From assembly GCF_988242995.1 (NCBI RefSeq), contig NZ_OZ547043.1: 64,000 nt of DNA. One strand, given 5' to 3'. The notes beneath the pieces are model-generated. The model ran no database searches. It was given only the letters and a program-made list of their open reading frames with translations, and was not told the origin of the DNA. Within the stretch, counting starts at the first letter, position 1; every line of letters starts with the position of its first letter. This document shows, piece by piece, positions 32,755 through 33,603 of the stretch. Made by a program: the position numbers and the translations under genes.

Positions 32755-33603
32755 ATTTGGTGTCCACTATTCTCTCAGGAATTTCAGGATCTGCCAGACG
32801 GTGCTGAGACGACGCTTACATAATTTTTACGTTCAAGACAGTTGATTATCGGCGCATATGACTCAAAAAGAGCCTGATGATTGCCTCTTTTCCATAGGCT
32901 CTTTCTCTGAAGTGAAGGAAGGCCCGGAAGAAAGCACTCGCTGGCATACGTGACTCCAGCTCAACCGGAGATAATCACCATTGTTATTTTTCTATTTAAT
33001 AATAATCTCCTGAAAAATAGATATAGCAAAAATACAATCCGGCCAGATTTAATTCCGCATTCATTACCAGAAACAATCAACACCACAACTATCATATCAT
33101 TCAATAGTAACTGCTAAAATTTTATTATTTCCCTCTTATTCACATAGAAATTGTCAACCTGTTTATTATGCCGCACTTAAATAGTTAATCACAAAACAAC
33201 ATCACCATTATTTGCGTGTTTTATTTATTAATAACATAGTCATACGTTCTTTTTTTACAAGGAAATAATCAATTGATAAATTGTTTTTGGTCTTAATAGT
33301 CAAGTAGGAAACATTTTAATAAATGATAAAAATCCTAAATTCCTTGTTCATAATGTAGGGGTGTGTTAAATAGGTGGGCAAAATTTGGTTCCCCTTCTCG
33401 CCTGTAATATTGCAGCATCTTCGCACCTCCATGAGACATTGCGACTTAATAAGAAGGTGATAAGTCCTGCATATAAGCATGGACTGACCATGGTTTTATA
33501 TTCATTAAAAATTTTGTTACAACCCATTGATTTAGCATAAATAAATTATAGTGGGTTCGGGTTTGTTGTGACTGTGGCATTATTTCCGTGCAAAGGAGCT
33601 GAT

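Follow-up and report, generated by a model that had tools for sequence, protein, structure and literature searches.

A probable ISEc22-mediated deletion junction at the pheV island/kps boundary that leaves the PR1 control region intact

Organization of the pheV island/kps boundary

Virulence depends in large part on the group 2 capsule, whose thermoregulation in turn relies on PR1. An IS element near PR1 is therefore worth checking, and we analyzed one such element in a 64,000-nucleotide stretch of contig NZ_OZ547043.1 (RefSeq assembly GCF_988242995.1; the whole stretch is referred to as the window). A PR1 region is expected to be transcribed at 37 degrees and silent at 20 degrees. The window contains pheV (6647–6722) and an integrase gene (6920–8185), and the pheV island extends over ~24 kb from 6647 to 30366, where an IS66-family element separates it from the region upstream of kpsF. 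The kpsF ATG is located at 33604, the gene is annotated KpsF/GutQ in matching genomes, and intact kpsE, kpsD, kpsU, kpsC and kpsS follow downstream. The features at the boundary are as follows.

30229–30366, + strand: 5' fragment of the DUF4942 gene (46 codons), the last gene of the pheV island, identical to the BL21 gene up to 30366
30367–32819, − strand: ISEc22 (IS66 family), complete, 2453 bp, delimited by inverted repeats, flanks and independent copies
30404–31942, − strand: tnpC, IS66-family DDE transposase, 512 aa (Pfam DDE_Tnp_IS66, E = 7.9e-107)
31991–32338, − strand: tnpB, IS66 accessory protein, 115 aa (Pfam TnpB_IS66, E = 6.8e-36)
32335–32754, − strand: tnpA, IS66 accessory protein (Pfam HTH_Tnp_1; from the open reading frame list)
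32820–32844, no strand given: last ~25 bp of an ancient IS110-family remnant, by alignment with related copies
32820–33603, + strand: native kps region 1 upstream region (PR1 regulatory region and 5' UTR), by full-length matches in other genomes
33604–34587, + strand: kpsF, 327 aa, first gene of kps region 1 (SIS and CBS domains)

Identity and boundaries of the ISEc22 element

The element exhibits the gene order of the IS66 family, tnpA, tnpB and tnpC, with all three genes on the minus strand. TnpC is an IS66-type DDE transposase that also contains the Pfam domains zf-IS66, LZ_Tnp_IS66 and DDE_Tnp_IS66_C. The start of tnpA is positioned only 65 bp inside the kps-proximal end, and transcription is directed away from kpsF. 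Full-length identity to ISEc22 copies is 99.4–99.5% over 2453/2454 bp, the matches being annotated as ISEc22 in many unrelated chromosomal, plasmid and prophage contexts, and the element is uniform ISEc22 throughout, with no sign of chimerism. The initial annotation had placed an IS66-family element directly upstream of the control region with its genes on the strand opposite to kpsF, and the mapped termini (30367 and 32819) and the minus-strand genes bear this out.

Both ends carry the terminal inverted repeat GTAAGCGT, which begins GTAAGCG as expected for the IS66-family ISEc22. The right terminus is at 32819, where the window reads ...GACGACGCTTAC, and it was confirmed by four of four independent ISEc22 copies in unrelated contexts, which diverge from the window exactly after CTTAC. 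Comparison with IMT5155, with NCTC86 and with the unoccupied site of BL21 confirmed the left terminus at 30367 (GTAAGCG...). An alternative right end 9 bp further to the right, suggested by megablast matches extending to query position ~129, was ruled out, as the flanks are merely AT-rich and divergence sets in right after CTTAC; the same check at the left terminus likewise ruled out an alternative end. An 8-bp target-site duplication around the window's ISEc22 is absent, the left flank being GCACATTT and the right flank ATAATTTT.

The window copy and its closest relatives are 2453 bp long rather than the usual 2454 bp, the one-base difference lying at ~32751 near the tnpA start, where GTCCA-CATATT is found in place of the usual GTCCACCATATT. 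The predicted tnpA open reading frame is longer (139 aa) in the shorter form.

The window holds one other IS66-family sequence, at 8978–10907, which follows closely on the integrase gene of the pheV island, an arrangement shared with strain H1827/12, and includes a tnpC open reading frame of 461 aa on the minus strand (9015–10400). The element ending at 32819 had been described as a second copy of IS66; its assignment to the IS66 family stands, while its description as another copy of the same element does not, the sequence at 8978–10907 being truncated and only ~85–87% identical to ISEc22. The same truncation and divergence rule out recombination between the two sequences.

The PR1 control region downstream of ISEc22

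The interval of 784 bp between ISEc22 and kpsF has a G+C content of 34.2%, compared with 49.6% for the window, and similar AT-richness is found in the window only at kps region 2 and the region 3 promoter area. Base composition is uneven within the interval, with 45% G+C in the first 141 bp (32820–32960) and 27.5% in a core at 32961–33360. The strong AT-richness attributed to these ~780 bp in the initial annotation is thereby borne out, as is their assignment as the kps region 1 control region.

Transcription from PR1-1 starts 225 bp upstream of kpsF (PMC8960920; PMC5738388), and H-NS/SlyA footprints have been mapped at −224 to −134, −121 to −79 and +1 to +32 (PMC8960920). The starts of PR1-2 and PR1-3 are located at +132 and +181, an IHF site is located at +140, and PR1-2 is reported to depend on transcription-coupled supercoiling (PMC5738388). 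The same paper provides the sequence of the IHF site (TTACAACCCATTG) and, in its plasmid table, that of the PR1-2 −10 hexamer (TATATT). We placed the PR1-1 +1 position at ~33379 by counting 225 bp back from the kpsF ATG and checked this placement against the matches to the IHF site and the PR1-2 −10 hexamer. The control elements map onto the window as follows.

33155–33245, no strand given: H-NS/SlyA footprint I (−224 to −134), coordinate transfer, 28.6% G+C
33258–33300, no strand given: H-NS/SlyA footprint II (−121 to −79), coordinate transfer
33379–33410, + strand: PR1-1 start (~33379) and H-NS footprint III (+1 to +32), coordinate transfer
33497–33502, + strand: PR1-2 −10 hexamer TATATT (start +132, ~33510), exact match
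33517–33529, + strand: IHF binding site TTACAACCCATTG (+140), exact 13/13 match
33559, + strand: PR1-3 transcription start (+181), coordinate transfer

The 784-bp interval thus spans ~−560 to +225 relative to the PR1-1 start, a range that takes in PR1-1, PR1-2 and PR1-3 together with the IHF site and the three H-NS/SlyA footprints. The sequence corresponding to −224 to −79 and to +1 to +32 is present, has a G+C content of 23–29% and is predicted by its coordinates to be bound by H-NS/SlyA. Among seven alleles compared, the window has no private substitution in these predicted H-NS/SlyA-bound stretches, nor anywhere else in the interval. An Rfam scan of 32500–33900 at E ≤ 1 returned no structured RNA.

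The ISEc22 junction is positioned at ~−560, 335 bp from the outermost footprint edge (33155). The initial annotation had raised the concern that an IS element this close could have taken out upstream regulatory sites, and had proposed alignment with kpsF upstream regions of other strains as the check. This alignment shows the full native region intact downstream of the IS: the 784 bp match at full length, from the first base after the element, in 1,554 of 5,426 complete E. coli genomes at 96–99.6% identity. In five IS-free strains (1190, BL21, an ST131 strain, an O6:K2 strain and a CSF isolate) the sequence continues upstream without interruption, and the window departs from them exactly at 32819/32820. 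With the native 784 bp whole, the junction at ~−560, the footprints at least 335 bp away and the replaced DNA foreign to kps, the concern is not borne out.

DNA replaced by ISEc22

On the island side, DUF4942 is cut off by ISEc22 at codon 46, and matching genomes annotate the gene as incomplete, missing its C-terminus. BL21 is identical to the left flank of the window up to the IS and then contains 971 bp that the window lacks (L003:3030–4000, in coordinates of the BL21 locus). The missing segment comprises the rest of DUF4942, the attR repeat TTCGATTCCGAGTCCGGCACCA, the pheV terminator and most of the IS110-family remnant. The attR repeat and the terminator are found in BL21 (L003:3572–3641) and not in the window, and the terminator is the sole part of the 971 bp shared with K-12.

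On the kps side, related IS110-family copies from elsewhere align at ~87–88% identity up to L003:4025, equivalent to window position 32844, which places the ISEc22 junction inside the remnant. The remnant transposase coding sequence ends 26 bp upstream of the junction position in the five IS-free strains. The full-length PR1 reporter pJJ1 (−646 to +227) is the only published construct that reaches further upstream than the window junction (PMC5738388), and its additional 86 bp (−646 to −560), absent from the window, correspond to the tail of the IS110-family transposase remnant. The DNA replaced by ISEc22 consists of the IS110-family remnant, the island attR and DUF4942, and not of kps DNA.

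The remnant itself (a 183-bp coding sequence tail; L003:3792–4025) constantly borders kps on its upstream side in ~1,600 complete genomes, BL21 and E. coli C among them, and is located either directly after pheV or after the island attR. Possibly it dates from the acquisition of the kps cluster. The intact IS110-family element of the O6:K2 strain was ruled out as its source, having no DNA similarity to it.

Distribution of the junction among E. coli genomes

In the set of 5,426 complete E. coli genomes, the ancestral junction between the remnant and kps is present in 1,639 genomes and the right junction between ISEc22 and kps in 26. All 26 also have the left junction between DUF4942 and ISEc22, which is otherwise found in E200086, where ISEc22 is interrupted by an IS3, and in three APEC strains at another locus. 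Two allele groups can be told apart among the carriers, which over 4.8 kb are ~99.3–99.5% and 98.9% identical to the window, and no fewer than two distinct cassettes occur in capsule region 2 of the 26 genomes. In PCN033, gene order and sequence follow the window through the island, the IS and region 1, but region 2 is a different one. The genes kpsFEDUC and kpsS are intact in the window and free of pseudogene flags in strain 100117 and PCN033.

Since PCN033 shares the island, the IS and region 1 but carries another region 2, the locus has been in use since the event; the change of region 2 among carriers further indicates an arrangement old enough to predate it, with no decay of the locus. 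It thus characterizes, as an inherited trait, a small group of strains.

Region 2 of the window (41673–47765, minus strand) contains three large open reading frames. Their products are a 530-aa protein with WcbI and hexapeptide acetyltransferase domains, a 231-aa cytidylyltransferase-like protein and a 1112-aa protein for which Pfam gave no match. Region 2 of the window shows no megablast similarity to region 2 of PCN033.

Origin of the junction

The likeliest order of events, as read from the flanking sequences, begins with insertion of ISEc22 into DUF4942 at GCACATTT. An IS-mediated adjacent deletion would have followed, in which the end next to tnpA transposed intramolecularly to ATAATTTT, an AT-rich target, and would have removed ~971 bp, that is, the rest of DUF4942, attR, the pheV terminator and most of the IS110 remnant. 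AT-rich flanks like ATAATTTT are also observed at other ISEc22 copies. That DUF4942 was likely the original insertion site is indicated by the APEC strain IMT5155, in which an IS66-family element occupies the same DUF4942 site in a paralogous island next to cadC (L015:5121–7562) and is flanked on both sides by an intact 8-bp GCACATTT duplication. The missing duplication in the window can accordingly be attributed to the later history of this copy rather than to its family. An intermediate of insertion followed by deletion at the pheV locus was not found among the 5,426 complete genomes. The left junction of the IMT5155 type is also found in strains DE17 and VTB96815v.

The same 971 bp could instead have been lost when an IS66-family copy in DUF4942 underwent homologous recombination with another in direct orientation on the kps side, a route to which we assign roughly one chance in four. 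IS66-family elements do recombine with each other, as the IMT5155 element is a clean chimera whose first ~800 bp are 100% identical to the window's ISEc22 and whose remainder is ~100% ISEc8, and in UID2309220009 the IS110 remnant that precedes kps harbors an ISEc8 with the same orientation. Against this route, none of the 5,426 genomes has ISEc22 with a duplication on the kps side, and the right junction is never found without the left junction in DUF4942. The uniformity of the window's ISEc22 also argues against such an exchange, although this point is weak, since identical copies would recombine tracelessly. Insertion followed by adjacent deletion is the order preferred here. The feature is real but ordinary, a probable IS-mediated deletion junction between the pheV island and kps, with the control region intact.

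Predicted effect on capsule expression

We consider it probable that the window contains a complete native PR1 region with ISEc22 at its far edge, brought there by insertion and adjacent deletion, and that little or no effect on expression is to be expected. The effect on capsule expression and thermoregulation is expected to be nil or small because the mapped cis-elements are located at least 335 bp from the junction, the flanking G+C content has stayed the same and transcription of the IS genes leads away from kpsF. Over the 200–400 bp beside the junction, G+C is 46.5–48.7% with the IS and 46.8–48% without it. Consensus scans found no plus-strand promoter-like site at or near the ISEc22 end at 32819, and overall counts were not above those of shuffled controls; an outward or hybrid promoter from the IS end was rejected on these grounds. 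The arrangement does not fit an IS-altered promoter, in which the IS end supplies or completes a promoter toward the gene or mapped regulatory sites are removed or split: the junction is at −560, the mapped sites are all downstream of −224 and the IS end shows no promoter-like site toward kpsF. The best-supported reading is that ISEc22 would be neutral for capsule regulation, and the junction is an ordinary rearrangement that marks a lineage and probably has no regulatory consequence.

An influence of ISEc22 on region 1 expression, through the loss of distal DNA or of the pheV terminator, read-through from the island, or supercoiling generated by the divergent tnpA, appears unlikely, at about one chance in ten by our estimate. 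Several observations give this idea some substance. The literature reporter extends to −646 and the window retains sequence only to −560 (PMC5738388), but the lost −646 to −560 segment is the tail of the IS110 transposase remnant. The pheV terminator, normally an insulator of kps from upstream transcription, is gone together with attR, and the dependence of PR1-2 on supercoiling (PMC5738388) could be brought into play by a tnpA start only 65 bp inside the IS end. Against this, the mapped promoters and footprints are all intact and at least 335 bp from the junction, the scans yielded no outward promoter-like site, and the flanking G+C is the same. The carriers examined have intact kps genes and two different region 2 cassettes, and IS elements far closer to PR1, at ~−337 and ~−198, are tolerated elsewhere. 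Papers on PCN033 report no capsule expression data, and a literature search on IS66 or IS110 next to kpsF found nothing relevant.

With attR and the pheV terminator both lost in the 971 bp, the pheV island is fused to the capsule locus and has perhaps become unable to excise. A broader proposal, in which the promoter sites play no part, that the ISEc22 deletion may permanently weld the ~24-kb island to the capsule locus so that it cannot excise, and may expose region 1 to upstream transcription or altered tnpA supercoiling that subtly shifts capsule expression, is more speculative still, and we would put it slightly below the previous one. Neutrality of ISEc22 remains the preferred reading, and the junction is of use mainly for recognizing the lineage and for illustrating how an IS can mediate a deletion where the pheV island meets kps.

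Comparison with other IS events near kps and with known systems

A comparable arrangement has been described in ST131 KL112, where an IS1 lacking a target-site duplication lies beside kps and is read as the product of IS-mediated deletion after insertion; it marks a lineage in which capsule gene expression persists (bioRxiv 10.64898/2025.12.15.689991). Both cases thus have a duplication-less IS that flanks a group 2 capsule locus and marks a lineage. They differ in that the KL112 element belongs to another IS family, lies at the opposite side of the locus and is associated with an inverted kpsMT and the loss of PR3, whereas no kps promoter or gene is touched in the window.

Promoters that are activated or de-silenced by an IS, such as that of the bgl operon of E. 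coli K-12, which is activated by IS1 or IS5 relieving H-NS silencing, resemble the window in having an IS upstream of an AT-rich, H-NS-bound promoter region. In such cases, however, the IS lies within or right next to the silencer or promoter, whereas the window's ISEc22 is 335 bp beyond the outermost footprint and has the same G+C content as the DNA that it replaced.

Independent IS events have occurred in other strains in the same flank upstream of kpsF, involving ISEc10, IS5 and ISEc8, the last lying inside the IS110 remnant of UID2309220009. ISEc10 (IS21 family) is located at ~−337 in AVS0465 and others (window-equivalent 33042) and was found in 4 of 60 evenly sampled matches, which corresponds to probably about a hundred genomes. 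Similarity to the native region in E1624 does not start until ~−198 (window-equivalent 33181), inside the coordinates of H-NS/SlyA site I, and an IS5-family transposase gene lies just upstream of this breakpoint. The ISEc10 and IS5 junctions are much nearer PR1 than the window's ISEc22 and are better candidates for regulatory effects, so natural kps regulatory variants are better sought at these junctions, at −337 and −198 respectively.
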